Translations under genes and position numbers: made by a program
In this document: positions 3,879-23,378 of the stretch, piece by piece
Layout of the letters: each line of letters opens with the position of its first letter
How positions within the stretch are numbered: position 1 is the stretch's first letter
Notes under the pieces: generated by a model
Told to the model about the DNA's origin: nothing
Databases searched by the model: none
The model's input: only the letters and a program-made list of their open reading frames with translations
Source of the DNA: Candidatus Heimdallarchaeota archaeon
GTDB lineage: Archaea > Asgardarchaeota > Heimdallarchaeia > Heimdallarchaeales > Heimdallarchaeaceae
Reading direction: 5' to 3'
DNA length: 23,378 nucleotides
Assembly: GCA_019057375.1 (NCBI GenBank)
Contig: DXJF01000121.1
Span: 1 to 23,378, forward strand

Positions 3879-4730
3879 TTACTCATTAGTGGGTAGATCT
3901 GGATTTTCAGCTGATTGAGAGGAGGAACTACTTCTTATAATCCGTTTAGCTAGTAAAACCAAGACCGACATTCCGAAGAGTAAATACAACCCACCATCAA
4001 AAAGCAAGAATGCAGTAAAGCCGTAAACAAAGGTAACAATCCCTTTAGTTGTAGTTAGACCTGTTAATAAATAGGGAATACGAACTATTAATGTAGCCCC
4101 TAAAATGTAGAGAAATGGAGCCATGGTAATTGAAATCAGTTTAGTTTTCAAGGTGACATTACGACTCCAATCAGGAATTTCTGGATTGAACCCTTTTGGT
4201 TTTTTCTTCTCAAATTTAGAGAGTAGAAGGGGAAAGGTATTAGAAATTCGCTTGCCTTGATCTTGCCTAATGGTTGTAAGATGGATTCCAACCTCTTCGA
4301 ATTTGTCTATAAGCTCATAGGCTTCATCAAAATTTACTCGAATGTCCAACAATCTCAATCTATGTGTTCTGATTCTAACAAGGTAATCCCCGTAATACGC
4401 GAGGAAATAAACGCCCCTTAATTCATCAAAATTCCAAGACTTACTTTTCGTGAATTCATGGAAGATTACTTTTTTTGAAGAAAAGTCTATAGATACTTGA
4501 CCTTTGACAAAGATATAAACTAAAACAATCATAATGGCATTAAGTATTCCAAAATAAAACCAGAGTGACAAACCAAACAAATCTCCAATGAGTACATCAT
4601 TTCTGTATGGTACATAGTAAGCAAGAACATCTATTATCAGTAGTAAGAAGATAGTAGAAATTCTTGGTCGAACCTTATGTACATAGCGAGATTCATCTGA
4701 CTCAGTAAGCATGCAAATAGAAGCCCTCAT
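3879..4730 (-). CDS. Hypothetical integral membrane protein (two TM pairs around a beta-rich soluble region)
   Basis: 283-aa ORF with hydrophobic segments near aa 24-75 and 195-260. Confidence 0.7.
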   Translation of the reverse strand: MRASICMLTESDESRYVHKVRPRISTIFLLLIIDVLAYYVPYRNDVLIGDLFGLSLWFYFGILNAIMIVLVYIFVKGQVSIDFSSKKVIFHEFTKSKSWNFDELRGVYFLAYYGDYLVRIRTHRLRLLDIRVNFDEAYELIDKFEEVGIHLTTIRQDQGKRISNTFPLLLSKFEKKKPKGFNPEIPDWSRNVTLKTKLISITMAPFLYILGATLIVRIPYLLTGLTTTKGIVTFVYGFTAFLLFDGGLYLLFGMSVLVLLAKRIIRSSSSSQSAENPDLPTNE

Positions 4731-4849
4731 GGAAAGTTATGAACTTTTCCGTAAAACGATTAACAAAATAATCCTTTCTTTACCCTAACTAGCTTTAGTT
4801 GTAAAAACAAAGATTTAAAAGAAGAGGAGGAAAAGAAAGCCATAAGAAA

Positions 4850-4958
4850 AGCGCCGTGGGGTAGCGTGGAAAACCCGTCGGGCTCATAAGTTCAAAATTT
4901 GTGAATTTTAAACTGAAAAACCCGAAGATCAATGGTTCAAGTCCATTCGGCGCTACCA
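4850..4958 (+). tRNA. Initiator tRNA-Met(CAU) with encoded CCA and a 31-nt intron
   Basis: Acceptor stem AGCGCCG/CGGCGCT (A1-U72), anticodon stem CGGG/CCCG with three consecutive G-C pairs, CAT at 4885-4887, T-arm AATGG-TTCAAGT-CCATT, ends ACCA. Confidence 0.95.
4889..4919 (+). other. tRNA intron at canonical 37/38 position with bulge-helix-bulge motif
   Basis: Removing 4889-4919 restores the CT-CAT-AA loop. CTCA(4883-86) pairs with TGAA(4914-17) with one C.A mismatch, flanked by 3-nt bulges; the intron forms a GTTcAAAATT/AATTTTaAAC hairpin. Confidence 0.85.
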
Positions 4959-4969
4959 TCTTCATTTTT
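4928..4969 (+). repeat. 42-bp direct repeat, copy 1 (tRNA 3' half plus 11 nt; att-like)
   Basis: ATCAATGGTTCAAGTCCATTCGGCGCTACCATCTTCATTTTT, identical to 5410-5451. Confidence 0.95.
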
Positions 4970-5009
4970 TCCCAAAAATTAATATCTGTTCCTTCAATAT
5001 TGTACTTCT

Positions 5010-5405
5010 ATGATAAAAAGTTCTCGAATGATTAAGAGCTTTAACGTTTTCACACTTGTAGTCCTTCTTAGTTGTGGTATAGTTTTTCTTGCTATTCAAT
5101 ACCCTAAATGGTATCCAGAACTAACTGAAATCTCTTACCAGCCCGTTACAGATTTATATGAAGATTGGGAACTTAATGCAACTACTACTAATTTTTATCC
5201 TGCTAGCTGGGAATTAGCAGAGCCTAAAGTGATTTTTGATGAGAAAGCTTTCAGATTATTAATCGTTATAAGAGCAAGATATAAAGGATATACACTTATA
5301 CCAGCATTCTGGCAGCTGATGACTACTATCAATCTCGTTTTTCCACTGATAGGGAATTGGACTGTTTATTGTAATGATCAAATGTTCATTGTTCAGGTAA
5401 TATGA
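5010..5405 (+). CDS. Hypothetical N-terminally anchored or secreted beta-rich protein carried between the att-like repeats
   Basis: 131 aa; hydrophobic segment at about aa 12-29, then alternating beta-strand patterns ending GNWTVYCND; fills almost the entire inter-repeat interval. Confidence 0.65.
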   Translation: MIKSSRMIKSFNVFTLVVLLSCGIVFLAIQYPKWYPELTEISYQPVTDLYEDWELNATTTNFYPASWELAEPKVIFDEKAFRLLIVIRARYKGYTLIPAFWQLMTTINLVFPLIGNWTVYCNDQMFIVQVI

Positions 5406-9893: not shown

Positions 9894-9937
9894 TATGAGT
9901 TATTCTCTCCTCAAAAACCTTCAATAGCCTTCAGAAA
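9894..9937 (+). repeat. Degenerate 44-bp direct repeat, copy A
   Basis: TATGAGTTATTCTCTcctCAAAAaCCTTcaatAGccTTCAGAAA; 35/44 ungapped identity with 10076-10119. Confidence 0.8.
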
Positions 9938-9960
9938 ATCATCTAATATAAGTCTTTATG

Positions 9961-9998
9961 AAAGAAAAAAAGGAAAAAAAAGGGGAAAAGTAGGAAAG
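9961..9998 (-). terminator. Poly-pyrimidine (U-rich) tract, candidate terminator for the tnpB/omegaRNA transcript
   Basis: The plus strand is an almost pure purine run (aaagaaaaaaaggaaaaaaaaggggaaaagtaggaaag), i.e. U/C-rich on the tnpB strand. Confidence 0.45.
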
Positions 9999-10075
9999 AA
10001 TGTAAAACCTCGTAGAAAAGTTTGTTGTTGATTTATCACATGAGTTTGCGATTTGATTCTTATCGTTCCCCTGTT

Positions 10076-10119
10076 TATGAGTTATTCTCTTCCCAAAAGC
10101 CTTTTGCAGTATTCAGAAA
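10076..10119 (+). repeat. Degenerate 44-bp direct repeat, copy B
   Basis: TATGAGTTATTCTCTtccCAAAAgCCTTttgcAGtaTTCAGAAA; 182 bp from copy A. Confidence 0.8.
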
Positions 10120-10310
10120 GGTCCTCTCAAGACTCATCCTAAACCAGCGTAATATTGAAGAAACAGAGTTCTCCATAGTGGCAAAACTGCACAAAATGAA
10201 ATGATAATCAATTCATATTGTATCAGTACCGGTTTTCTGGAACAGAGACATACAATACTGTAAATCTGCTCAAAGGAATCATCTCTTGCTAATGGACACT
10301 CATTACAGAA

Positions 10311-10386
10311 CCTGTCGAATCTAAATAGATGACGGATTCTTGACCAAGCCTATCGAATCTAGAGAGTCGATGGATTCTTGGCAGAA
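10311..10386. repeat. Imperfect 38-bp tandem duplication spanning the tnpB stop codon
   Basis: 10311-10348 vs 10349-10386: 28/38 identical (26 of the first 32). Confidence 0.75.
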
Positions 10387-11918
10387 TCCTTAAGCCATTG
10401 ACCTAAAGGCGCTAGACACTTGAAAAGTGTTATCGGGTAGTAGTCACTGGAAAGTTTGTCTCCAATCTTGGTAAAACCTTGTTTAGGTTTCAGAGCATAT
10501 TGAATCAACCTTTTCCCGATGTTTTTTGCCCCATTCAGATCAGCATCAAGTTCATAACTGCAATCATGGCAATTAAATTGTCCTTGACCTGTACGGGTAG
10601 TGTTAAGTGAATCACACCTTGAACATCGTTTCGAGGTCCAACTTTCATTTATAACTACAACCCGATGGGATTCAAATCCATGGAGAGCAAGTTTTTGCTT
10701 CAGTTTAGTAACAAAGAAACGGAAGCGCCACTTGTGCACCGAACTTCTTAAGGATTTGTTTCCGCTACCGCGAGGGTGACTTTTTTGAATCTTACCAGGA
10801 TATCCTACTGATATAAACAGATTATATCGCTTTTTCAACTGGAGAATAAAGTCAACTAGTTGGTTAACTGCATATCCCAGTTCCTGTTCTTTAACAGAGC
10901 GAAGTCTTCTACGCAGTTGGTAGAGTTTGACGTTAAGCTGATTTGTAGGTTGTCCGTTGTATTTGCGCGTATCTAACACACTTTGAATAGACTTAATCCT
11001 GTAATCTAGCTTATGTATCTGTTGTTGTCGTTCCTTATCTACGATGAATTTTATATTATCCATGATTACTTTTCCAGAGGGGGTAAGTAACACTGCAACA
11101 GCTGTCTTCTTTATCCCTAGATCTACTCCCAACACAGCAGGTGGTTGAGTAGAATGGTAAAGAGGGACAGTATATTGGAGGGTGAAATGTGCCCACCACT
11201 GTTGATTTTTAGGAGAATATACTAGTTCCAACGTTTTTATCTTCTCTAGTTTCATCTTCTGTTTGTGATAAGGTGACAATGCTAAAGGTAGCCAAAGTTT
11301 CTTATGGTTTGATTTACCAGACCTTTTCGTATCAAGTGAATCCCTTAATACCAACCAAATTTTAGCAACGGTATTCTTGGGACTGTAAATCATTAGAAAC
11401 CGTTCTCTATTTATTGACTGTATTCGGGGGGTTTTCTTCTTGAATCGTGGTCTTTTCAGCTCCTTTTTGGTAAGACTCTGTTGTGTTTTCCAGCTTTCAT
11501 AAGTCCAGATAGCTTTATCTCTACATTCGATGAATTCATCATGGGAACAGCGAGGATAGCGTTTCTTCAAGTCGTGAGGAACTGTTGTTCGTAGTTTGTG
11601 GTTTGTTCGTTTAGAAGTCGTTAAAGTCAATTTATCCAGAAGGGATTTGTTGACTGTACCATTGTTTCGAAGTACTTTGTTCTCGTTGTGTTTGATGATT
11701 CGTAGGTAGTCATTGCAGATTCTGGTATCGCGTGTTGTAATGATTCTCAACTTATCGCACTTCCGAGCTGTCATCCGTTCTGTTTTTATCCTGAGTTTAA
11801 CAGTATCGTAAACAGGGAGAGATGGTGCTTGAAGTGTGCAATTTGTTTTTCCACTTTTCTCATTTTTTTGTTTTCCATTTTTTAGTTTTTTTTGTACATT
11901 ATCTTCTTCAATTTTCAT
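10359..11918 (-). CDS. tnpB: TnpB/Cas12-superfamily RNA-guided endonuclease with a rearranged (Fanzor-like) RuvC active site
   Basis: RuvC-I GVDLG (D269), canonical RuvC-II Glu replaced in ISVGYP (G375), Glu in INESWTSKRC (E428), zinc finger CSRC-x14-CHDC, RuvC-III DADLNGAKNI (D463); numbering from the GTG at 11927. A GAGGTGA SD favours the ATG at 11918. Confidence 0.9.
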   Translation of the reverse strand: MKIEEDNVQKKLKNGKQKNEKSGKTNCTLQAPSLPVYDTVKLRIKTERMTARKCDKLRIITTRDTRICNDYLRIIKHNENKVLRNNGTVNKSLLDKLTLTTSKRTNHKLRTTVPHDLKKRYPRCSHDEFIECRDKAIWTYESWKTQQSLTKKELKRPRFKKKTPRIQSINRERFLMIYSPKNTVAKIWLVLRDSLDTKRSGKSNHKKLWLPLALSPYHKQKMKLEKIKTLELVYSPKNQQWWAHFTLQYTVPLYHSTQPPAVLGVDLGIKKTAVAVLLTPSGKVIMDNIKFIVDKERQQQIHKLDYRIKSIQSVLDTRKYNGQPTNQLNVKLYQLRRRLRSVKEQELGYAVNQLVDFILQLKKRYNLFISVGYPGKIQKSHPRGSGNKSLRSSVHKWRFRFFVTKLKQKLALHGFESHRVVVINESWTSKRCSRCDSLNTTRTGQGQFNCHDCSYELDADLNGAKNIGKRLIQYALKPKQGFTKIGDKLSSDYYPITLFKCLAPLGQWLKDSAKNPSTL

Positions 11919-11981
11919 GAATTTCACCTCTTAAAATTGTTAGTGTATAATGAACACTGAAACCATTATCGAATGATCTAA

Positions 11982-12038
11982 AACCAATGGTTCCTCTTCT
12001 AGTCTTGTAGCATTAAACCAGTAGAGGAACCACTGGTT
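11982..12038. repeat. Long inverted repeat / hairpin upstream of tnpB (candidate left-end structure)
   Basis: AACCAATGGTTCCTCT (11982-97) vs AGAGGAACCACTGGTT (12023-38): 15/16 complementary; flanked by AGTGTATAAT direct repeats at 11942 and 12045. Confidence 0.75.
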
Positions 12039-12224
12039 GTACAAAGTGTATAATTGCTCCGAAATATCCGACAACTAAGATTTCAAAAAACTAAATTTCT
12101 TCTCTTCACCTCTTTTTCCTGCGATAAGCAAAGAATTAACAGGCAATGGAGTAGAGGTAACGAATGTAATTCTTGCCTATCAAAGTATTAGAAGAGTCTT
12201 TGTATTATAAACCCCAAGGAAATT

Positions 12225-14957
12225 TTATGACAAATCTTTTTTCATCAAGTGATTGACCAGTTCTCGTTTTGCACAGAATAGAGAGTAATCATTATATGCT
12301 AGCTTTCTTTCCAATAAGACTTGTTTCAGTAATTCCTCTATTGTTATGTGAAATTTTTCTAGAATAGCTTGTTCAATTTCATATTTTGTATATCTCTTCA
12401 TTAAAATCGAGCAAACGAGTTGAGCATTTTTCCTATAATCTAAACATTTTTGTTTGTTCATGCTAGAAGAACAAAATGTGTTACAAACATCATCCTGTAT
12501 GTTTTTATTCTCTTCTAAAACACTAGCCGTGGGTTGTTCTTCGAAGCTTTTAACCATTATCAAAGGACTAACTCTTTTCTTCGAGGTTTGTTTGCTGCTG
12601 TTTTCTTTCTCGTTCTTCTTGCTTTTACCTTCCTTTCTAGAGTGTCGATTAGCTTTTCCAAGTTTTTCATACAAGGAGGTTCGCATATCAATGAAACTGG
12701 TGTAAAGGAGGGGATAGGTGAAGGAGGGATATCTACTTTCAAGAACTTGAAGGTACTGATTATAGTTGAGAGGGTTGCGAGAAAAATCTAAGGTAGTCAT
12801 TTCAAGAGCTTGATCTTGACCATCAATCCAAACTAAACAATGTCGGATAGGAAGTTGTTGAACAAGCTTAAAGCGGTCATCTGGTAGATTAAATGCATTA
12901 GCAATTTTTTTGATGGCTTGATTTGATCGAAAAACAATTTTAGTGGAGGAATTGGCATGGACAATGTTGCTCACACTATCCCACATCTGGGAAATGGTTA
13001 AGTGACCAATCCCTAAGCTTCTCCCAAGTAAGAATTTATTTTCTGCAGTTATTAAAGAAGCAGAACTCTCAGTCCTATAGAAATTAGGTATAACATTAAT
13101 TGCTTCTTCTAAAACAACTATATAACGCAACTTGTTTGTAAACTCTCCAGTAGAAGCGAAACGATAGAATAATTTCAGAATCAAGTTACAAATAAGAAAA
13201 ATATCGGAAGGTCTTGCAGCTCTTCTTTGAAATTGGCTTAAATCAAAAATTATACTTTTTCCTTGTTCCAATAAATCGAAGTCTAAAGTGGTTTCTTTCA
13301 CTCCCAGCATTTCAAAGTTTATGGGATTAAAGATATAGTTGAGTCTGTTAAGAACGGCATCTAATGTGTGTTGTATAGACGAGATGTGGCTTGTTTGTTT
13401 GGCAAGAGCAATGAGGTTTTCAACAAAAGTCTCTAATGTGCGTTCATCAGCTTTATGGGTCAAAAATAAGGCGTTTTCAAAAAGGTTCTTCATAGAAGGA
13501 CTAAACTCTTGACTGGAAGTAACCATCATTTCTTCAATGATGAGGAGTGTGCTCCGTACATCATCTTCATCTTTAGTATCAAAAAGGTTGATGCATAGAG
13601 GATGAGGCTGTCCAATAGTATAAATTTCCACATTAGGTTCATCCACAAATGTTGCAGCATACTCTCCCTTCACATCAAAGATTAAGCAAGGTTTCTGGTA
13701 CCTAATCAGCTGTTCAAGTATACCACAAACTAAACGGGTTTTACCGCGTCCTATCATCCCATAGATTTCAACATTATAGAGAAGTTCTTCAATGCCAATC
13801 AAGACTTCATTTGTTGACAGTACAGTACGTCCATTACCCAAAAGAATAGAGTGTTCACGTTGAAGGATTGTTTTCTCCCTTGGGTGCAAGACAAAAGCAG
13901 TTCCCTGATAATCTAAGGGGAGATGGAAATACTTTGACAGTTTATCTAAAGGTACAATTTGGGGTTTTTTGAGTCGAAGTACATTCTTGTTTTTAGGGAA
14001 ACTTGTAGCATGGCGGAAATTTTTCAAAGTTTGAGCATCATCAGAAAAGGAATAGAATTGTAAAAGAAAAGTAGTGGATTTCTTCTCCTTTTTCTTAACT
14101 CTTAGCAATAAAGTAATGTTTGGAAAAATCTCATTTGATATAGTTCTGAACACTAGTTCCATCATATCTATATCGGTTTCTTCTAAAGAAGAAATATCTA
14201 ATGGAATTTTGATTTTCATTTCCTTAAGAACCTGAAATAGTAGCTTTGTTTGTTCTACGGTTAATATTTCGCTTGAACTCTCGTAATATGTAGTAAGTAA
14301 ATTCGATAGAAACAACAATTTCTGCTGCATCTTACTTACAAGCTTCTTTTTGGAAAACCCTTTCATTGAAACAAAGAAATAGATGCTGATAGAAGATTCA
14401 TATTTAGATATGAACATTTGAATATGGTCAATGTTGAGGGCCAATGTCTGACTGAAATTCTCATGTACTTTATAGGCAAAATGTTTTTTATTGACAATGT
14501 CACTACTTATAGAATTCAACAGTAGAACGCTAGTAATCTTGTAAAATGGAAGACACATTCTTCGCTGACAAAATACTTTTTGGTCCTTTGTCATAACATA
14601 TGGGGAAAAGATACTAAATGTAAGAAAAATAATTATGCTGAGAAATGTTATTGCTCCGCTTATGCTCGAAAATACGCTTCGTAATGAATTGCTTATCATC
14701 TCCCATAAATTAGAGAAAAAAGTAGAAATAGACGAGAAGAAACGCATGTCATTTAGAAATGATAGAGATGGAAACCATCTAGCTAATTCAGGAAATAAAA
14801 AGAGAAAAGTGATTACTCCCACAATTAAGGCAATAACATAAGGTGATACAGTGCGTATCACAGATCTTCCTGTTCGTTTCAAAGATCTAGAATCTGTTGA
14901 ATGTGAAGAATTCCTTTGCCTGTTTGCTCGATATCTGGAATCCTTCATGTTCACCAC
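12225..14957 (-). CDS. Membrane-anchored HerA/FtsK/VirB4-superfamily P-loop ATPase (DUF87-like), 910 aa
   Basis: Walker A GMIGRGKT, IFDVKGEY, Walker B VVLEEA, GRSLGIGHLTISQ (HerA-clade motif), NSSTKIVFR; two N-terminal hydrophobic segments; GTG start. Confidence 0.85.
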   Translation of the reverse strand: MVNMKDSRYRANRQRNSSHSTDSRSLKRTGRSVIRTVSPYVIALIVGVITFLFLFPELARWFPSLSFLNDMRFFSSISTFFSNLWEMISNSLRSVFSSISGAITFLSIIIFLTFSIFSPYVMTKDQKVFCQRRMCLPFYKITSVLLLNSISSDIVNKKHFAYKVHENFSQTLALNIDHIQMFISKYESSISIYFFVSMKGFSKKKLVSKMQQKLLFLSNLLTTYYESSSEILTVEQTKLLFQVLKEMKIKIPLDISSLEETDIDMMELVFRTISNEIFPNITLLLRVKKKEKKSTTFLLQFYSFSDDAQTLKNFRHATSFPKNKNVLRLKKPQIVPLDKLSKYFHLPLDYQGTAFVLHPREKTILQREHSILLGNGRTVLSTNEVLIGIEELLYNVEIYGMIGRGKTRLVCGILEQLIRYQKPCLIFDVKGEYAATFVDEPNVEIYTIGQPHPLCINLFDTKDEDDVRSTLLIIEEMMVTSSQEFSPSMKNLFENALFLTHKADERTLETFVENLIALAKQTSHISSIQHTLDAVLNRLNYIFNPINFEMLGVKETTLDFDLLEQGKSIIFDLSQFQRRAARPSDIFLICNLILKLFYRFASTGEFTNKLRYIVVLEEAINVIPNFYRTESSASLITAENKFLLGRSLGIGHLTISQMWDSVSNIVHANSSTKIVFRSNQAIKKIANAFNLPDDRFKLVQQLPIRHCLVWIDGQDQALEMTTLDFSRNPLNYNQYLQVLESRYPSFTYPLLYTSFIDMRTSLYEKLGKANRHSRKEGKSKKNEKENSSKQTSKKRVSPLIMVKSFEEQPTASVLEENKNIQDDVCNTFCSSSMNKQKCLDYRKNAQLVCSILMKRYTKYEIEQAILEKFHITIEELLKQVLLERKLAYNDYSLFCAKRELVNHLMKKDLS

Positions 14958-15289
14958 TTGAATTGCTAGTACTTCATAAGCTTACAAATTCAACCAGACA
15001 AGCATATAAAAACACCTCAAGATATTACTGTTAAAATAGTTTCAATAGGATTTGAAGAAAGAAAGTACAAGGAAATAAAAAGTTCAAATTTCACAAGGAA
15101 TGAATGTGATGGAAGTTAACACCATTAACTCTCTGAAAACATAAACACAACAAAGAAACTAATTAGAAGAGTGAAATCACGAATTCAAAAAAAATCATCT
15201 AATAGTGAAAATTTTACTGCTAATTCTAATAAAACTACAAATAATAACTAACAATATTCTTTTTGAAGAAAAAGTTCTGTTTAATCACT

Positions 15290-15424
15290 TTACTTTTTGA
15301 TTTTTTTCAGGCAATTTGAAATAAATCTATGCTTATTTAAATTATTAAGACCTAAGTGTTCAATTAAATCAGACAAAAAAGCTTCATAATCAACTTTATA
15401 CAAATAATTTGATAGTTCTCCCAT
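15290..15424 (-). CDS. Possible 44-aa small ORF or gene remnant (not in the ORF track)
   Basis: MGELSNYLYKVDYEAFLSDLIEHLGLNNLNKHRFISNCLKKIKK, amphipathic-helix pattern inside a 700-bp AT-rich gap. Confidence 0.25.
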   Translation of the reverse strand: MGELSNYLYKVDYEAFLSDLIEHLGLNNLNKHRFISNCLKKIKK

Positions 15425-15678
15425 TTGTAAAAATCACATGTTCTTTTGTAGAGTTTTATGCTAACTTATGTTTTCTATTATCGAATTTGTAAATTCAAAC
15501 AAGTACTGAATTATTGTTTTGTATCTCACCAACAATAGATTCTTTAAACTTTATCTTTCTTCCGTCTAGCATTGGTAAGAGTAAGATTAAATACAACGAA
15601 AATAAAAACTTCTTTATATATCAAAAGATAATCAAATCTCTAATGAATATAGACAAGTTTGTGAATGGAGGAAGATAA

Positions 15679-16995
15679 TTGAATTATATTAACAATATTT
15701 CTAATAACAAAATTTCCTTTTCTGCAGCGAAAGTAAGGTTGGCTTCGAAATCTGGAAATCGTTGTGCAATGACAGGATGTTATAAACAACTTGTATTCAA
15801 AGATAGGGAAAGTGGTGCAGAAGTTTTTATTGCTCAAACACATCATATTCGTTCTATAGATAAAAAACATTCTAGGTATGATCCTAATTTTCATGTTGAG
15901 AAATATAATAATACAGAAAATCTAATCTTGTTTTGTTCTGATTGTCATAAGATTGTTCATGATGCTCCAAATTACTATTCTATAGAAATCCTCCTGAAAA
16001 TAAAGAAAGAACGTGAAGAGAAAGTTGATAATAACGAAGCTTTTATTCAAAAGGTTGAGGAAGAAAAGCAAGAATTTGAAGAAGCTTTTGAAGAGTTTTC
16101 ACTTCTTCCAATGCTAACAGATTTTCACAAGAGAAGGAAGCATTGGCTAAACGACAGGTTAAAAGGTGTTTTCAATGAATTTAATCCAATAAACTACCAA
16201 AATGTGTTTGAATCACAATTTCCTAAAACAGGTTTAATTACTTCTGTATGGAAAAAAGATTACGGATTGATGTCTGATGATTATTATAAACTGTATTCTG
16301 TCCAAAATTACAATACAAGTGAGGATATAGATATAAGTGCTTTTGAAACTGCTGTACCATCTTTCAATACTGATTCACTTGTGGTCAGGAATGTCTTGGA
16401 GACAGAATTTGCCAAAATTGTTTTAGACCTTATAAAACTTGAAGAAACACAAAGTGATTCTTGCTTCATTTATGAGAATTTTTCAGAAATAATAGAAAAT
16501 ATATCTCACTTCAATAAACCTCTACTATTATTAGATGACCATACAGATGATTTGATTGATTTTAATTCTAAGGAACCTAAAGTGTTTATGGATATCTTCT
16601 TTGCAAGAAATGTGGAAAGTGTTAAGTATCGCAAGGTATCAATGAAAGTCAATGATGTTAAACTAAATATTATAAAATATCATATTCCTACAAAACTAAG
16701 AGAAAAATATCCACAGTTTTCAGAGACTAAAGGGATAATCATTGATCAAGACAAAGTTGAATATAGAATTAAGGAACCTCTTAGAGTGGAATGGAGAGTA
16801 AAAAAAGATGCAGTGAAAGTTATTGAACATGATGATGCTTCTTCAACTAGAAATCTAGATAAGGATTATTTCAATTTCAGATGTTTCACTTTAGCTGAAA
16901 TAAAAAACCATGATACTACAATAATCTGGAAATATACAGGTGAAGAGCTAGAAATATTAAAAGAAAAGAAGAAGAAACTTCAAAAGCTGACTTAA
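15679..16995 (+). CDS. HNH endonuclease (N-terminal) fused via a charged helical linker to an uncharacterised C-terminal domain, possibly HK97/encapsulin-like
   Basis: SGNRCAMTGC...HHI...RYDP...NNTENLILFCSDCHKIVH is the effector-type HNH seen in HNH-SAVED and similar fusions; E/K-rich aa 105-165; the C-terminal call is tentative. Confidence 0.75.
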   Translation: MNYINNISNNKISFSAAKVRLASKSGNRCAMTGCYKQLVFKDRESGAEVFIAQTHHIRSIDKKHSRYDPNFHVEKYNNTENLILFCSDCHKIVHDAPNYYSIEILLKIKKEREEKVDNNEAFIQKVEEEKQEFEEAFEEFSLLPMLTDFHKRRKHWLNDRLKGVFNEFNPINYQNVFESQFPKTGLITSVWKKDYGLMSDDYYKLYSVQNYNTSEDIDISAFETAVPSFNTDSLVVRNVLETEFAKIVLDLIKLEETQSDSCFIYENFSEIIENISHFNKPLLLLDDHTDDLIDFNSKEPKVFMDIFFARNVESVKYRKVSMKVNDVKLNIIKYHIPTKLREKYPQFSETKGIIIDQDKVEYRIKEPLRVEWRVKKDAVKVIEHDDASSTRNLDKDYFNFRCFTLAEIKNHDTTIIWKYTGEELEILKEKKKKLQKLT

Positions 16996-17034
16996 CTATT
17001 GTAGAAAAGATATTTCACTCTATCAATTGGATAT

Positions 17035-17262
17035 TTATCGTTTATTAAGTTCGTCTGTAGAGATTGATCCACTTTGATATCTCCTTTTAACGGTTGAAGA
17101 TGTTAATACTATAACTGAGATTAAACTCACCATTATAGAGAGTGAATGAAGGGGGGTTTTTCTTGTTGATGGATTAACAAAAGGAATAGTTTTACTAGAA
17201 GTTCTTCCCACTCCATCTAAAGCTACAAAAGTTATAATTACAGATCCTCCGTTTGGTATCAT
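17035..17262 (-). pseudogene. C-terminal remnant of a surface protein (end of an Ig-like domain plus TM anchor)
   Basis: IPNGGSVIITFVALDGVGRTSS resembles the last strands of Ig-like repeats (NG.Y.I...A.D..G..S), followed by a hydrophobic helix and KRR; a stop lies 2 codons upstream of the ATG. Confidence 0.45.
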
Positions 17263-17281
17263 CAGTTATAGTAGAAAAATG

Positions 17282-17547
17282 TCAATATATTCTCTTATTA
17301 ATCCTCATTAAGGGGATATTTTGATACATCTTGTTTGGTTTGAGTATTATCTTTCCCTCCAACAATTTTTACTCAAAGAACTTCTCTGCTACCACCAAAG
17401 TCCACCTTCTTCTCTTCAGCTCTCTTCAAGAACTCTTCAAAGGAATATTTCTTCTCTTTCAGTTTGTCCATTATCTTCTCTAAAATCTCCAAACAGTCCA
17501 GAAAAACTTATTTTCTCGCCTATCTTTTCGAAACAGTTTTTTTCCAT
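17282..17547 (-). pseudogene. Decayed winged-helix protein gene (resembles the MCM C-terminal wH)
   Basis: Joined over two frameshifts and one TAA: MEKNCFEKIGEK/FLDCLEILEKIMDKLKEKKYSFEEFLKRAEEKKVD/VVAEKFFE*KLLEGKIILKPNKMYQ. Confidence 0.45.
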
Positions 17548-17607
17548 TATAAAAAGAATTGATATAAAAGGGTAACAGAGTTTAAGAATTAAAAGGATAG
17601 AGAAAGT

Positions 17608-18105
17608 TCACAGAGTGGAAACATCTAACATTGCTTTTTCTATTTTTAGTTTTCCTTGTTTCTCTAAAGAATGAATAGCATTCACAATTGCTTGAGCTGA
17701 TAAAGGATAGAACAAAGGATTAATCCCATCTGTTACTCCAGAAGTTTGTACAATAATAATTGCTTGGTAGATAGATATTTTCTCTTGATTTGTACTCTTT
17801 TTATAATATTGTAGAGCTTGAGTGACCTGATCGATTGAATATTCGTGAGGAACAGGAATCCCAATGGATGAGATTTTTTTAGTAAGTTTTTTCAAGATCA
17901 TATCTCTTTTTCCTTGATTACATTCTTGACACAAAGTCCAAAGATTGTCAAAGTCATCTGTACCCCCCTTGGAAATTGGAATAAAATGGTCAACGGTCAA
18001 TTTTATGTTATCTTCACGACCACGACCACAAAAACGACATTTATAATTATCTCTGCTAAAAATTAATGTATTAACTTCTTTACTAATGTCCCTTCTTGAT
18101 GTCAT
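17608..18105 (-). CDS. McrA-like HNH endonuclease with C-terminal helical (winged-helix-like) extension
   Basis: IFSRDNYKCRFCG, VDHFIPISKGGTDDFDNLWTLCQECNQGK (H-N-N with CxxC pairs); C-terminal AIHSLEKQGKLKIE. Confidence 0.9.
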   Translation of the reverse strand: MTSRRDISKEVNTLIFSRDNYKCRFCGRGREDNIKLTVDHFIPISKGGTDDFDNLWTLCQECNQGKRDMILKKLTKKISSIGIPVPHEYSIDQVTQALQYYKKSTNQEKISIYQAIIIVQTSGVTDGINPLFYPLSAQAIVNAIHSLEKQGKLKIEKAMLDVSTL

Positions 18106-18367
18106 TTATTTTGTGTACATCGTACTAAACTTAAAGTTTCTTCATGAAATTATCTTTTTTTAATCAAGAAAAAACAAATGTTCTAATCTAAGATTGGGGT
18201 ATACGTAGGAATAGGAACAATCATACTAGTAGAAACTCTGTGATCGTTACTCTATGCTAGCTGCTGTTTCTACTTTAGAAAAAGACTTTTGACTATTTAA
18301 ACTGCAATAGACTGAAAGAGATATACTATTGTGATATGTTTATAACAGTGTTTACATTAAAATCAGT

Positions 18368-18523
18368 ATGAAACAGACTTGCTATATGTGTCAAAAAGAA
18401 CCTCTAGCAAGATGTCTCCATTGTAACCATCCAATCTGTAAAGAACACTCAACTGCTTATAATTCAAGTACAAAAAAAGCGTTTTGTCCAGCATGTATAA
18501 AGTATTATCATAAAGAAAATTAG
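18368..18523 (+). CDS. 51-aa two-zinc finger protein (AN1/B-box-like spacing), not in the ORF track
   Basis: MKQTCYMCQKEPLARCLHCNHPICKEHSTAYNSSTKKAFCPACIKYYHKEN: C-x2-C-x7-C-x2-C-x4-C-x2-H-x12-C-x2-C. Confidence 0.8.
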   Translation: MKQTCYMCQKEPLARCLHCNHPICKEHSTAYNSSTKKAFCPACIKYYHKEN

Positions 18524-18541
18524 ATTGTTTTTCTTGTTATT

Positions 18542-18711
18542 CTATTCTTTAAATACCATTTCTTCTTCTATCAGTTTTCCTCTATTGACTACTCCACAGT
18601 TTATGCAAACCATCTCTCATCTGATGTCATCGGTTATGAAAGAGATTTTCCACATTTTGAACAAGATTCTTCTTCTCTCCGATTTGTTTATCTCTGTTCT
18701 ACCTTTATCAT
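18542..18711 (-). pseudogene. Decayed stand-alone TFB/TFIIB-type zinc-ribbon gene
   Basis: MIKVEQR*TNRREEESCSKCGKS / FITDDIR*EMVCINCGVVNRGKLIEEEMVFKE; one 1-nt frameshift and two stops; matches CxxCG-x-D..RGE.VCxxCG.V. Confidence 0.6.
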
Positions 18712-18716
18712 ATTCC

Positions 18717-18959
18717 TCACCCTGTATTGATAAAGTGGGTGACTATAACATAGAACATCCCTCCCAGAACAAGGACTATCCCTGCTCTGTAAAACAGTAG
18801 AGCAATAGAAGTTTTTCATATCTTGGATGTTTCTATTATCTTTTTCTGTTTCTCGTCTAATCTTATTGTTCTGAATAGTTCCATTATTGGTCTGATATAC
18901 ACTACCAATCCTATGAAACAAATTATTGCTCCTGCAAAGACAGCAAAAATAATGTTCAT
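18717..18959 (-). pseudogene. Two-TM small membrane protein interrupted by one in-frame TGA
   Basis: MNIIFAVFAGAIICFIGLVVYI...IIETSKI*(18816-18)KTSIALLFYRAGIVLVLGGMFYVIVTHFINTG*; the second TM helix continues in frame after the stop. Confidence 0.65.
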
Positions 18960-19423
18960 TCTCTGTTCAAAGTTCTCTTGACTGTTTCTTAAAAATATCA
19001 GTTCTATCAGTGTTGCTTTGAGAAAAATTACAAGTAATATTCCTTGACTTTGGATTATCTTCAAATTTTCTCTGTTAGCTTTAGTATGAATTGTTTTTTT
19101 CTGTTTTTTTTCACGTTATTTTCTTTTGTACCCACTTCTTTCACCTTTCCTAGAAGGGGAATGAGCGAACAAGAAGAATGATGTTCAAACATATATCGGA
19201 AAAATGGTTTATATAGATTGTATAGATGTTAAAGAGGTTCATACATTGTCTAATTGCATGTGGGTACGTGCTGTTTAAATTTCCAATATATGTCAATTCT
19301 AATTTCTATTTGCTCTATATTTTCATTCGTTGAATATAGGAATATTTATACTAGAATACTATTTATGTGGAAAATAGAATTTTAGAAAAGATGATTTATT
19401 TACATAATTGTCTTTCACATTTA

Positions 19424-22400
19424 TTAGATATAATAATCTAATTTTTCTTTATACTTATTTTTTTCAATCATCTTATGTTCTATTTTTGTGTACAAATTAT
19501 CTAGATCCTTTGTAAGAGAGAATGTCCTTTCAATAACTGCAACAATTGTTTTGAAATATTTCAAATCCTTCAAACCCAGTTCATTTCCCTTTCTTCTTCT
19601 CAACCATTGCTTTAATACTTGGTATCCGCCAATTCTATAATCCCAAACATTCTTTTTAACTCCGGTAAAATATTGTTCTTTATTAATTTCTAATCTTTCA
19701 TGATTTTCATCATATCTCAGATGCTCAACTATATTATCTCCAGGATTTGGAAAGCCAATATGTTTTGTTTCTACGAGTAATTTATCTTCTTCTTTTAAAA
19801 GATGTAAATTTGCAAGTTCTTGACCCTTTTTCGACATAGCAATAAACAATCTAAATGAGGTTGGAAAAGGTATCTTTGGCATATCATAATCAAGACAGGA
19901 TTGCCATTTTTCCCTATAATGGTTGGAGTAAAGAATCCCGTAAATGTAATAGAGTACCTTTTCTGCTATTTTCTCATTATCATTTAGGATATTTCCATTG
20001 TGATCATCAACAGCTTCAGTTTTGTAAGAGCCTCTTAACAAACTTAGAAGTCTTTCCTTGATATTCAAAGATAGTTTTTCTCCTTTTCCTTTCTTATAAT
20101 GTAATGGACAGAGTATAGATGACCCTCTATAAGTTACTAGAACCTGATCTGGCATATCTGATACAATAAAAACCATATCCCAAGGATATTTGCTTGGTCT
20201 ACCAGATCTACCAACAACTAGGGCAAGTTCCTCAGATTCATTTCCTCTTAAATGCTCTGCTCTTCCCCTTGCTGTAATTTGAACAAATCCCTCTTGATAG
20301 AAGATATATTGAAAATCAAATGGACGGTAATGTATCCTTCGAATATATTCTTCGACTTTCTTATTGGAATTTCTTAAGGTGGTAACATAATTATTTATTC
20401 GTTCTTCTGTCCAATCATTTCCTTTCCACTTCATAAGATTATATCGCTGTATAAGTTCAGTGACAGATAAATCGCGATTCTTGAATTCATCAAATCGTCT
20501 AACAAGATTTTCTTGTTTCAAGTCAATAGATAACTCGTCTCTACTTGTTTGAACACCAATTTGAGCAACGTAAAAAATATCCTCTCGAAAATCGAAAAAT
20601 TTTTCCCATGATTCACTTTTCTCACGACTTATCTGGTGTCTATTTAATAAGAAATAAGGTCCCCTAGGTTGTATTTTCTCAAAAAAGTCTCCTTTTTCAT
20701 ACAATTGCAAAATACGTGAATTTTTCAAACTGTCCAATTTCTCTATAGCTGAACCCCAAACATCACCATAATAAACATTGGCAAAACCTAGTTCATCCTT
20801 TCCCTCAAATTCATTATTCTTGTATTTGATTAAAAAGAACATACAAACCCCAGTTTGAATGTTAAATACGTTTTCATTTTTCATATCTTTAGGCGGAGTT
20901 TCTTCTCGAGCATCTCCATGTAAATCATAGATAAAGATTTCATCAAATGCTTTAAGCAGACTCTCTCTCATTCCTCTATGAATTCTTCCTCTCAAAAAAT
21001 TGTTATTTGTTATAAATGCTACAATTCCACCTTTCTTTGATTCGGAAATTTTCCAATGGGCGAATCGTATGAACTTAATATAATCATCGGACAAAGGTTG
21101 TAAATTTTCTCTAGATTTTTTATCACTTGGTTTGTAATCTTTCATCAAATTTTCAATAAATGAATGTTGATTTGTGGAACCGATTTTGTAAGGAGGATTA
21201 CCCATTACAACAAAAATTGGTGTCTTTGCTTTTACTCTATTAGCTAATCGCCCCTCAGTGGTTAATGCAAGAAATCCTGTTAAGTCTGAGGGTTCATTTT
21301 TTGTTTCCAATGCGTTTGTAAGATATAGTTTGAATCTATCAGTTTCTTTAAGTGGAAATTTCAAAGATTTGAAATACATTCTTAGTTTGAAATGACTGAT
21401 AGCATATGCTGTAACCATTATCTCAAATGCGTAGAAGTTCTTCAGTATATGCTCATTTATCAATGAGCCAAAGGTTCCAAGATCCCCTCTGTTTGCAAGC
21501 TTACCACATACACAGTTGATTGTCTGAAGAATGAATGTTAATGTACCAGCACATGGATCTAAGACAGAAACCTTTGGATTCGCGAAACCATCATTAACTT
21601 TGAATCTTTTTTCTAACATTTGATCAACAGAATTAACCATGAAATTTACAATTTGAATTGGAGTATAGTACACTCCTTTTATCTTTTTCAAATTTGGATT
21701 GTAGGATTCGAGAAATTTTTCATAGAAATAGATAGTAGGGTCTATTCTACTATCATTAAAAAATGAAAAGACATGATCCAAATCTGTATTATTTAGCAAT
21801 TGTATTATACTATTACAACAAAATTCAACATTTTTTGGCATTTTAATCATAAATTGAGTATATAACTCCACCAGAACAGGTATACTTTGAGGGATTTCTT
21901 TCCACACAGAAGAAATTGTCAATGGTTCTTTCTTTTCTTCAGCTTTTTCATGATGAACAACCGCTAGTAGCAAACTATAACAGATAGTTTGTGCTAACAT
22001 GTCTGAAAATTCCTCGTGAGAAATATTTTCAATTAGAGAGTTTCTAAAACCTTTAAATAAAGATTCAATTGCTTGGACCCTAAATATCACTCCATTTTCT
22101 GTCTCAGTCAGATATGAAATAAAAATATCTTTCATAATTGCCGTTAATCTAGAAAGAGAGTTTGTTAACCTGTTGATATCTTTTATTTTCCTAGCTTTGA
22201 AACTGAAGAAATCTGTGAAACACTCTCTTAATTGCTTTATATTGTTTGGTTTTATTTTGAAATGTTCTTTTTGTAATTCTTCACTTGAGCATAAATTTAT
22301 TCTTATTAATTGTGAGCTTTCATTTAAAAAGATAAATTCTCTGAAATTGGTTAGACATATGTTTGGAAAAGCATTCTTATATCTTAATACTTGTTCAGAT

Positions 22401-22675
22401 TGAATGAAGGCTTTAATTTTTAAATTTGGACTTTTCGCTTCAATATATCCCTGAATCAGCTCACCATTTAAAACTATGAAATCTGGCATCCCCCACTTTT
22501 CTACAGGATTAACAATTACTCTTTTATCTGGTGTATCAAATATGTTGGAAATAAACTCGGATAAAATAGGATAGAAGGACTGTTCTGTTGATTTTTCTGT
22601 TTCCAACACAGACTTGATATCTAGTAAATAATTGTCCAAGTATTTCTCGAAAGCTATTTCTGATACTATAACCAT
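19424..22675 (-). CDS. Single-polypeptide restriction-modification enzyme (PD-(D/E)xK nuclease + N6-adenine MTase + Type ISP-like specificity domain; no helicase, Type IIL/IIG-like)
   Basis: PDF-x11-EAK nuclease motif, YYTP, DPCAGT (motif I), MGNPPY (motif IV), YIKFIR, C-terminal YYIYGILYS...YR...PKIP and VWDYRIGGYQVLKQWL; 1083 aa intact. Confidence 0.9.
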   Translation of the reverse strand: MVIVSEIAFEKYLDNYLLDIKSVLETEKSTEQSFYPILSEFISNIFDTPDKRVIVNPVEKWGMPDFIVLNGELIQGYIEAKSPNLKIKAFIQSEQVLRYKNAFPNICLTNFREFIFLNESSQLIRINLCSSEELQKEHFKIKPNNIKQLRECFTDFFSFKARKIKDINRLTNSLSRLTAIMKDIFISYLTETENGVIFRVQAIESLFKGFRNSLIENISHEEFSDMLAQTICYSLLLAVVHHEKAEEKKEPLTISSVWKEIPQSIPVLVELYTQFMIKMPKNVEFCCNSIIQLLNNTDLDHVFSFFNDSRIDPTIYFYEKFLESYNPNLKKIKGVYYTPIQIVNFMVNSVDQMLEKRFKVNDGFANPKVSVLDPCAGTLTFILQTINCVCGKLANRGDLGTFGSLINEHILKNFYAFEIMVTAYAISHFKLRMYFKSLKFPLKETDRFKLYLTNALETKNEPSDLTGFLALTTEGRLANRVKAKTPIFVVMGNPPYKIGSTNQHSFIENLMKDYKPSDKKSRENLQPLSDDYIKFIRFAHWKISESKKGGIVAFITNNNFLRGRIHRGMRESLLKAFDEIFIYDLHGDAREETPPKDMKNENVFNIQTGVCMFFLIKYKNNEFEGKDELGFANVYYGDVWGSAIEKLDSLKNSRILQLYEKGDFFEKIQPRGPYFLLNRHQISREKSESWEKFFDFREDIFYVAQIGVQTSRDELSIDLKQENLVRRFDEFKNRDLSVTELIQRYNLMKWKGNDWTEERINNYVTTLRNSNKKVEEYIRRIHYRPFDFQYIFYQEGFVQITARGRAEHLRGNESEELALVVGRSGRPSKYPWDMVFIVSDMPDQVLVTYRGSSILCPLHYKKGKGEKLSLNIKERLLSLLRGSYKTEAVDDHNGNILNDNEKIAEKVLYYIYGILYSNHYREKWQSCLDYDMPKIPFPTSFRLFIAMSKKGQELANLHLLKEEDKLLVETKHIGFPNPGDNIVEHLRYDENHERLEINKEQYFTGVKKNVWDYRIGGYQVLKQWLRRRKGNELGLKDLKYFKTIVAVIERTFSLTKDLDNLYTKIEHKMIEKNKYKEKLDYYI

Positions 22676-22910
22676 ATTATTCCTCTATATTTTTAACATA
22701 TCAAGGTTTTTATCTTTTACTGAACGCCTTCCTATCATTACAAAACGATCTATCTCCTCTACTCTTCTTCTGTCTTTATCTTAAATCTAGACATTTATAA
22801 TGGGATTTGCGCGAATATGCCACTTTATTAACGAGTTTATTTATTATCTTTACAGACTAGTCCTTACCCTTCTTTTTGTTCATCCCACCAAACTCTTAGA
22901 GTTGATCAAC

Positions 22911-23300
22911 ATGAGTCAGAAACAACTACCAAAATATGATTTGAACAAGCTTAGATTTTTCCTTTCTCAATTTAAAGAATTGATTGAGGATATTGAATTA
23001 TTGAAAAAACAGCGTGCTCTTCTTGAACTTCCTTTGAATCTTTCTATTAATCTTGCGCCTGTCGATATGAATGACGAAGATTCTTTTCATCAAGTTCTCT
23101 GAGATCATTAACAGATGCTTCATCAGGGAGCTAAAGATCCTTTAATTTTTGGTCTTAAAAAAATCTTTGAGCAGACTTACAAAGATTTCAGAGAATCCGT
23201 ACAAAATGATTCAAATTATTTTATTAAATTCATTGAAGAAATTGAAAAATTATCTAGTTTAGATACTGTTCTCTTAAAACTCACAGAGGATATCTCATAA
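22911..23300 (+). pseudogene. Helical hypothetical protein split by two in-frame stops
   Basis: The track ORFs 22800-23102 and 23115-23300 are in the same frame: ...DSFHQVL*DH*QMLHQGAKD...; likely start is the ATG at 22911 (129 codons before the final stop). Confidence 0.6.
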
Positions 23301-23378
23301 GTTGTTATCAGAAGTGTCTTGATGGGGGACATTCATTTTTAGTTGGACTTCTTTTATTATACATCAAAAGAATTATTC

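Follow-up and report, generated by a model that had tools for sequence, protein, structure and literature searches.

TnpB–omegaRNA systems of the IS200/IS605 and IS607 families reportedly bring about homing and retention of their elements, as Meers et al. are said to have described in Nature in 2023. In such homing systems the guide matches sequence adjoining the target-adjacent motif (TAM) of the element-free allele; the empty site is cut and the occupied one is spared. The tnpB gene described here lies in contig DXJF01000121.1 of a Candidatus Heimdallarchaeota archaeon, of which we analysed 23,378 nucleotides (nt), the whole stretch being referred to below as the window. Its locus shares the guide match, so that its nuclease would likewise cut the empty site and spare the occupied one, and differs from the homing systems in having no TnpA, in carrying a multi-kilobase cargo, and in possessing a built-in guide copy that is followed by an element-encoded T-rich tail. 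We read it as a functional RNA-guided nuclease, a TnpB with an alternative catalytic Glu (Ealt), which closes an island of about 17.6 kb and whose guide is aimed at island-free alleles of the gene ggt, and we put the probability of this reading at about 0.72. New are the covariation-supported scaffold of 328 nt, the six paralogs, the empty sites in sister genomes, and the guide–target matches.

The catalytic variant at the centre of this protein was described in 2023. Jiang et al. described the TnpB2 class and found that an archaeal member, TvTnpB from Thermoplasma volcanium, cleaves DNA (PMC10530073), while Altae-Tran et al. delineated the RIIr clades, including RIIr-5, with Glu changed to Gly, and RIIr-6 and RIIr-8, which are almost confined to archaea (PMC10691335). 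Yoon et al. defined Ealt, recognised Fanzors and the cyanobacterial IS607 "pro-Fanzors" as combining Ealt with DPG, and derived Fanzors from cyanobacterial IS607 TnpBs (PMC10711439). In ApmFanzor2, Glu467 forms a triad with Asp324 and Asp501 by cryo-electron microscopy (PMC11832414) and is required for cleavage (PMC10530073). The Heimdall TnpB fits the published Ealt pattern, with DLG at RuvC-I, and by its sequence belongs to this known Ealt/TnpB2/RIIr class rather than to a Fanzor-specific form. In common with the class, it has Gly in place of the canonical Glu, a conserved Glu separated by six residues from the first CxxC, DLG at RuvC-I, an NADxN-type RuvC-III and an omegaRNA encoded at the 3' end of the gene; the present protein is larger (519 amino acids (aa) versus about 400) and its scaffold, at about 328 nt, is longer. 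TvTnpB is found beside an IS605 TnpA, whereas the Heimdall TnpB has no TnpA, closes a 17.6-kb cargo island and carries a built-in guide.

Gene, protein and relocated glutamate

The gene and its catalytic positions are as follows.

10359–11918, minus strand: tnpB open reading frame (ORF), 519 aa plus stop, recognised by its open frame and profile matches
11121–11123, minus strand: codon of D266 (RuvC-I, GVDLG), Asp in 65/65 aligned rows; the next residue is Leu, which is Pro in Fanzors
10803–10805, minus strand: codon of G372 (ISVGYP) at the canonical RuvC-II Glu position, Gly in Asgard and Ealt rows and Glu in canonical rows
10644–10646, minus strand: codon of E425 (INESWTSKRC), the alternative Glu, which is Glu in every Ealt and Fanzor row
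10560–10625, minus strand: C4 zinc finger, C432/C435 and C450/C453, all four Cys invariant
10539–10541, minus strand: codon of D460 (RuvC-III, DADLNGA), invariant in the alignment

The reading frame yields 519 aa from the ATG at 11918 and 522 aa from the GTG at 11927; because this GTG falls within a GGTGA ribosome-binding motif, and because an ATG or TTG start is kept in the paralogs, the 519-aa form is the likely product. Residues 1–30 (window 11829–11918, minus strand) are Lys-rich, are predicted to be disordered (predicted local distance difference test, pLDDT, below 50) and vary in sequence and length among the paralogs. A first-pass annotation, made from the sequence by a model, had named the protein a TnpB, and the profile matches bear this out: NCBIfam NF040570 (guided_TnpB) scores 103.4 bits against a cut-off of 100, and Pfam PF07282 scores 54.5 bits against 26.3 (1.3e-14). 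The same annotation had described an Asp/Gly/Glu/Asp layout with the Glu 53 residues past the Gly and seven before the zinc-finger Cys. All four motifs (GVDLG, ISVGYP, INESWTSKRC and DADLN) are present, the alignment columns confirm them, and both distances are exact, with 53 residues from G372 to E425 and seven positions, that is six intervening residues, from E425 to C432. The residue numbers it gave (D269, G375, E428 and D463) denote the right residues but run three too high, having been counted from the GTG at 11927 (522 aa); the numbers used here are D266, G372, E425 and D460. It was also right that a scan for the canonical Glu would wrongly label the protein dead, the rearranged D-G...E-D layout being real. 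The Asgard host that it had raised as a condition is borne out: judged by the names on the closest homologues, the organism belongs to the Heimdall group of Asgard archaea.

Motif columns were read from a 65-row alignment of 16 canonical TnpBs, 39 Asgard and other Ealt TnpBs, and 10 giant-virus Fanzors. As can be seen there, the G372 column is Glu throughout the canonical TnpBs (16/16), Gly throughout the Asgard and other Ealt proteins (39/39) and Pro in nine of the ten giant-virus Fanzors, and the E425 column holds Pro or Arg in the canonical rows and Glu in all others. D266 and D460 are both invariant across the 65 rows, and because the D458 column varies (N/D/H/Q) and that of D460 does not, D460 rather than D458 is assigned as the catalytic Asp of RuvC-III. 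Pairwise HMMER alignment to OsCas12f shifts the stretch around G372, and its position was therefore checked by multiple alignments. In a separate alignment G372 and E425 are both kept in 49 of 50 relatives, the lone exception being a distant canonical TnpB with IQMEN and Pro, and on account of this conservation the Gly/alternative-Glu arrangement is judged a family trait rather than the product of chance. The Hodarchaeota relatives P0078–P0081 read VVGELKG at RuvC-II, with Glu right after the conserved Gly, and retain the alternative Glu too; this double-Glu form could be an intermediate or a redundant state.

The AlphaFold2 model (mean pLDDT 84.4) positions G372 at the end of strand 366–373 and E425 directly after strand 420–424, with D460 beginning helix 459–476, a predicted topology that fits the published β4-to-β5 shift of the Glu in RIIr TnpBs (PMC10691335). 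G372 occupies the canonical site on strand β4, and we propose that E425, at the end of the adjacent strand, completes a D266–E425–D460 triad. The register about E425, N-E-x-x-T-S-K-x-C, equals that around Glu467 of ApmFanzor2 and that of E323 in TvTnpB. Foldseek returned Cas12f and TnpB as top solved-structure matches, with ApmFanzor2 at rank 19. These best whole-protein matches in structure and sequence, Cas12f (OsCas12f 9nzq, AsCas12f 8j12) and TnpB (ISFba1 8iaz, ISDra2 8h1j), have the WED–REC–RuvC–zinc finger organization in common with the Heimdall protein and differ from it in their canonical RuvC-II Glu and, for Cas12f, in the use of a CRISPR array.

OmegaRNA, guide and the island at ggt

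Downstream of the tnpB stop, and overlapping its end, the following parts are distinguished.

10077–10404, minus strand: omegaRNA scaffold, about 328 nt, ending ...GAGAATAACTCAT and overlapping the final 45 nt of tnpB
10040–10076, minus strand: guide region of 37 nt, reading as the reverse complement of positions 1–37 of the sister ggt ORF
9895–10039, minus strand: element tail, about 145–146 nt, absent from the sister empty sites and homologous to the tail in relative L012
9960–9998, minus strand: T-rich tract within the tail
9895–9917, minus strand: second copy of the scaffold end, within the tail
10040–10079, plus strand: displaced ggt start, ATG plus 12 codons, MSLRFDSYRSPVY, matched to sister ggt

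For the RNA, 11 loci were compared, namely the six paralogs of this genome and five loci from other genomes. Some 330 nt are common to them, from the last tnpB codons to ...GAGAATAACTCAT, and similarity stops exactly after CTCAT. The consensus structure comprises 61 pairs, with 95.3% of cells paired as against 31–46% in slid controls; compensatory changes occur in 17 pairs (0–5 in the slid controls), which 0/500 shuffles reach, and an invariant ATGAGT pairs with the terminal ACTCAT of the scaffold. Rfam holds no family that matches the scaffold or the conserved leader described below. Covariation supports a structured omegaRNA, the end of similarity at CTCAT marks a sharp scaffold–guide boundary, and the guide RNA would consist of the 328-nt scaffold, starting in the last tnpB codons and ending ACTCAT, followed by the guide and then the T-rich tail, whose tract at 9960–9998 is a likely terminator.

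The guide agrees with the ggt start of sister genome G013 at 36/37 positions, and its first 20 nt are matched 20/20 in both G013 and G010, with CCAT preceding. Against the host's own ggt, which lies on contig C84, the figures are 13/20 and 27/37, with mismatches beginning at guide position 8, and divergence between the host and its nearest sister leaps from 1/40 to 10/37 precisely at the junction CAT/AAACAGG. A BLAST-short search of the host genome for a second guide copy gave chance-level matches only; the partner copy, on C84, has diverged beyond the reach of that search and was located via the sister genomes. Copies of the scaffold end bracket the guide (GAGAATAACTCAT at 10077–10089 and 9895–9907), and the closest relative, from another genome (L012:3200–3330), has the same repeat–spacer–tail–repeat layout with an unrelated spacer and a homologous tail. 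We considered the 146-nt tail as an independent miniature insertion and rejected this, since in the closest relative a homologous tail follows another guide. After its scaffold, paralog C80 carries a 22-nt guide with a 25-nt T-rich tail behind it. Precisely these 47 nt are missing from sister genomes; the flanking host DNA then repeats the guide at 20/22 positions, and the target in the sisters follows ACCAA or ACCAT. Because element tails separate guide from flank at both the ggt site and C80, and because these tails are absent in the sisters, the guide is a stored copy and not simply flank. The sequence CCAW is a candidate TAM, and the guide–target match beside CCAT or CCAA is the one indirect sign of RNA-guided, TAM-dependent cleavage.

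The surroundings of the guide become clear from seven genomes of the same genus, in which an APH gene is followed directly by the start of ggt (gamma-glutamyltranspeptidase) with no TnpB there. In the window the first 13 ggt codons (10040–10079) abut the scaffold end, and the remainder of ggt is found on C84. The end of the window's contig, C72 (window 23364–23378), and the start of the reverse complement of C84 (L077:8836–8850) overlap by exactly 15 nt, one of two such end pairs in the assembly, and by virtue of this overlap the window is continued into C84, where three ORFs of unidentified function are followed by ggt.

10080–23378, no strand assigned: window part of the island, continuing on contig C84 (reverse complement, bases 16 to ~4320)

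An inserted island of about 17.6 kb, closed by tnpB, is accordingly placed by sequence comparison at the 5' end of ggt. It separates the host's ggt from the region upstream of that gene. Its cargo consists of a HerA-like ATPase, HNH proteins, a type ISP restriction enzyme and unknowns, and the island ORFs scanned showed no integrase or recombinase domain. The listed ORF at 10022–10204 (plus strand, 60 aa) was discarded as a gene, being the ggt stub MSLRFDSYRSPVY read on into antisense omegaRNA. In the mechanism we propose, the TnpB–omegaRNA complex would cut island-free ggt alleles at the CCAT-preceded target, the element's own locus would be spared through the mismatches of the rejoined host ggt start from guide position 8 onward, and cutting of island-free alleles would favour retention or homing of the island.

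The protein belongs to a clade spread across Asgard archaea, and the genome contains six diverged tnpB paralogs, 58–73% identical at the protein level, and 27 PF07282 matches overall. The ratio of nonsynonymous to synonymous substitution rates (dN/dS) for tnpB is 0.21–0.30, and the paralogs are under purifying selection. That the protein is active, as the first-pass annotation supposed, is argued for by its conservation, by this dN/dS and by the conserved omegaRNA, and catalysis would be expected on these grounds. No match to the Y1 TnpA family (PF01797) occurs in the genome, which is 89% complete; neither a serine recombinase nor a Y1 TnpA was found adjoining tnpB, and the four resolvase genes of the genome all lie on contigs without a TnpB match. 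A small IS200/IS605 insertion sequence is argued against by the want of a Y1 TnpA match in this 89% complete genome and by the 17.6-kb island setting. In the relative on L013 a 267-aa resolvase gene (4499–5302) is encoded on the opposite strand, 2.8 kb downstream of tnpB, and probably lies outside the element of that tnpB. Two C-terminal forms are seen among the paralogs (C79, C65 and C80 versus C72, C81 and C63): some stop at ...GQWLK or ...GQWLE, and others carry on for eight or nine more codons and so reach the first hairpins of the omegaRNA. These two forms account for the "TGA inside" flags in the genome search.

Upstream of tnpB the window shows a conserved leader and a large ATPase gene.

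11919–12226, minus strand: conserved 5' leader, about 300 nt, conserved in nine loci
12202–12215, minus strand: TATA-like box of the leader
12123–12181, minus strand: leader hairpin 1
11984–12036, minus strand: leader hairpin 2; a GGTGA ribosome-binding site then precedes the ATG
12225–14957, minus strand: gene of a membrane HerA/FtsK-type ATPase, 910 aa, DUF87/HerA with a weak CedD match, directly upstream of tnpB

In the leader the hairpins measure about 15 and 20 bp, and eight predicted pairs show compensatory changes; it may act as a promoter with a 5' untranslated region or as a left-end DNA structure. A HerA-like copy or remnant, in the orientation of tnpB, immediately precedes that gene at 4/4 loci of this genome (G000) with an assembled upstream side; the other HerA-like loci are at C80:4083–6758, C65:72898–74511 and C81:8092–8265. 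On C72 and C80 the last four HerA-like codons and the stop overlap the start of the tnpB leader, and HerA-like copies without tnpB are present on C12 and C132. Two other genomes have short HerA-like remnants, and other relatives sit solo between housekeeping genes; a fixed mobile unit of HerA-like gene and tnpB is hence unsupported as a rule. Aloposons (PMC8813620) were likewise discarded as the context of the HerA-like gene: these are marked by giant genes in tandem and by tRNA sites, and neither TnpB nor HerA is mentioned in the paper. The remaining window, 14958–23378, encodes two HNH proteins and a 1083-aa type ISP restriction-modification enzyme, which lend the island a defence-like content.

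Alternative explanations and the Fanzor question

Several points weigh against a nuclease that closes an island and targets island-free ggt. The C72–C84 join rests on a 15-nt overlap plus synteny, and the exact island ends at ggt are ambiguous. The TAM guess comes from two sites, one of them within coding sequence that is conserved anyway. The position of the guide between two scaffold-end copies is unpredicted by the classical IS605 layout and, the paralogs being 58–73% identical, there is no sign of recent movement.

The alternative that survives best, though we consider it improbable, is a nuclease-dead or weakened RNA-guided DNA-binding protein, that is, a TldR-like regulator in which loss of the canonical Glu would amount to true inactivation and E425 would have a purely structural role. 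In line with this the canonical Glu is missing, the guide reproduces the beginning of ggt, the part of a gene to which a repressor would bind, and the placement of E425 in the fold is a matter of model topology. However, a deep clade keeps D266, E425, D460 and the zinc finger without variation, which would be unexpected after loss of catalysis, and ApmFanzor2 and TvTnpB, with this very layout, are catalytically active (PMC10530073, PMC11832414). Moreover, the host ggt start is mismatched at 7/20 of the first guide positions, which would leave no target in the cell to regulate.

Slightly less plausible again is a host-side defence effector, in which the protein would be a Cas12-like enzyme with a fixed single spacer and not the module of a selfish island. 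This would account for an element-built guide flanked by two scaffold-end motif copies, resembling repeat–spacer–repeat, and for a closest relative with the same layout and a different spacer; the neighbours (HNH, type ISP restriction enzyme, HerA) are defence-like, and PADLOC models of Cas12u3 and Cas12f match. The spacer, however, corresponds not to a virus but to a housekeeping gene on the chromosome of sister strains, and there to the very insertion site of the island. Nor is there a CRISPR array in the 23-kb window, or any cas or adaptation gene among the tnpB neighbours scanned, and no close relatives were found on viral contigs, the best showing 27% identity over 260 aa.

There is little to commend an immobile relic that has no present function and has merely not yet decayed, even if the genome is without near-identical copies, no transposase is present, and fragments exist, such as the C44 fragment and the truncated HerA-like copies. 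An intact 519-aa frame under a dN/dS of 0.21–0.30, compensatory changes in the RNA and a guide that matches sister alleles 20/20 all speak against decay.

The first-pass annotation had further called the protein "Fanzor-type", "IS607-related" and of possible bearing on the origin of Fanzors, and had suggested a phylogeny as a check. A profile search of 1.84 billion representatives gave 126 proteins at E <= 1e-30; most of those with a locatable zinc finger carry Gly plus Ealt, and canonical ones start near 1e-35. The closest homologues are named Heimdallarchaeaceae, Thor-, Hod- and Promethearchaeota, and two neighbouring clusters bear the names Odinarchaeia and "Asgard group archaeon". At RuvC-I, DLG is found in 13/13 Asgard relatives as well, and Pro follows the Asp in 10/10 giant-virus Fanzors. 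The giant-virus set was drawn from a metagenome-assembled giant-virus (GVMAG) contig (L064) and its family, including Klosneuvirus, its best solved relative being ApmFanzor2. An IQ-TREE quick search (LG+C20) was used, giving a tree with long branches in which the Fanzor side is viral Fanzor2-like only, without Fanzor1 and cyanobacterial pro-Fanzors. In this tree the 14 Asgard rows form one clade (support 100) inside a 36-row prokaryotic Gly/Ealt clade (95), and the Fanzors form their own clade (99) adjoining canonical-Glu TnpBs. Forcing Asgard and giant-virus Fanzor2 sequences together costs 63.8 log-likelihood units and is rejected by the approximately unbiased (AU) test (p-AU 6.7e-11).

On these results the "Fanzor-type" label is not supported, RuvC-I being DLG and not DPG in the protein and all its Asgard relatives and the Gly/Ealt class being already published; "IS607-related" lacks support too, with no adjacent serine recombinase found and the Asgard clade nested among prokaryotic Gly/Ealt TnpBs. 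The suggested phylogeny, run with TnpBs and giant-virus Fanzors, sets the Asgard clade apart from the giant-virus Fanzor2 relatives, and the rearrangement is known from large prokaryotic clades, which leaves no bearing on Fanzor origin. With Fanzor2 (ApmFz2 of the mimivirus of Acanthamoeba polyphaga, PDB 9b0l; PMC11832414) the Heimdall protein shares the alternative-Glu register N-E-x-x-T-S/T-K-x-C, the zinc finger, the RuvC-III Asp and the RNA-guided nuclease fold; Fanzors differ in reading DPG, in having Pro where the canonical Glu would stand, in their nuclear localisation signal, in their eukaryotic or viral hosts, and in forming a separate clade. A close prokaryotic relative or ancestor of eukaryotic Fanzors, and with it an Asgard origin of Fanzors, is accordingly the least likely explanation of all and very improbable: the alternative Glu in Fanzor2 register, the Asgard host and the disordered, Lys-rich N-terminus would suit it, but DLG in place of DPG, Gly rather than Pro at the canonical site, the tree and AU test (with the viral Fanzor2-like sampling and quick search just described), structural matches led by Cas12f and TnpB, and the published source of Fanzors in cyanobacterial IS607 TnpBs (PMC10711439) all oppose it.

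Meaning for Asgard TnpBs and their islands

Taken by itself the catalytic rearrangement adds little, having been described in 2023 with an active archaeal example known, and there is no link to Fanzor origin here. For annotation it does matter, in that scans for the canonical Glu would mislabel this entire Asgard clade as dead. As a system for testing the locus is complete, comprising a protein, a scaffold with a guide boundary, and a natural target with candidate TAM (CCAW); the same genome also holds an "immune" copy with natural mismatches, and the sisters supply empty sites. Should the empty ggt allele prove to be cut, the locus would also yield a large Ealt-type TnpB to test for genome editing. 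We venture, as a tentative idea that may well prove wrong, that in multi-kilobase Heimdall-group islands without recognisable integrase or transposase a TnpB with a built-in target copy (scaffold end, spacer, terminator, second scaffold end) is the sole maintenance or homing device, acting by the cutting of island-free alleles, after which repair would spread or retain the island, and that the repeat–spacer–repeat layout would form a natural link from omegaRNA guides derived from flanks to CRISPR arrays. Should cutting of the empty ggt allele hold true, the locus would represent RNA-guided upkeep of large cargo islands that lack a recognisable integrase, in the archaeal group related to eukaryotes.

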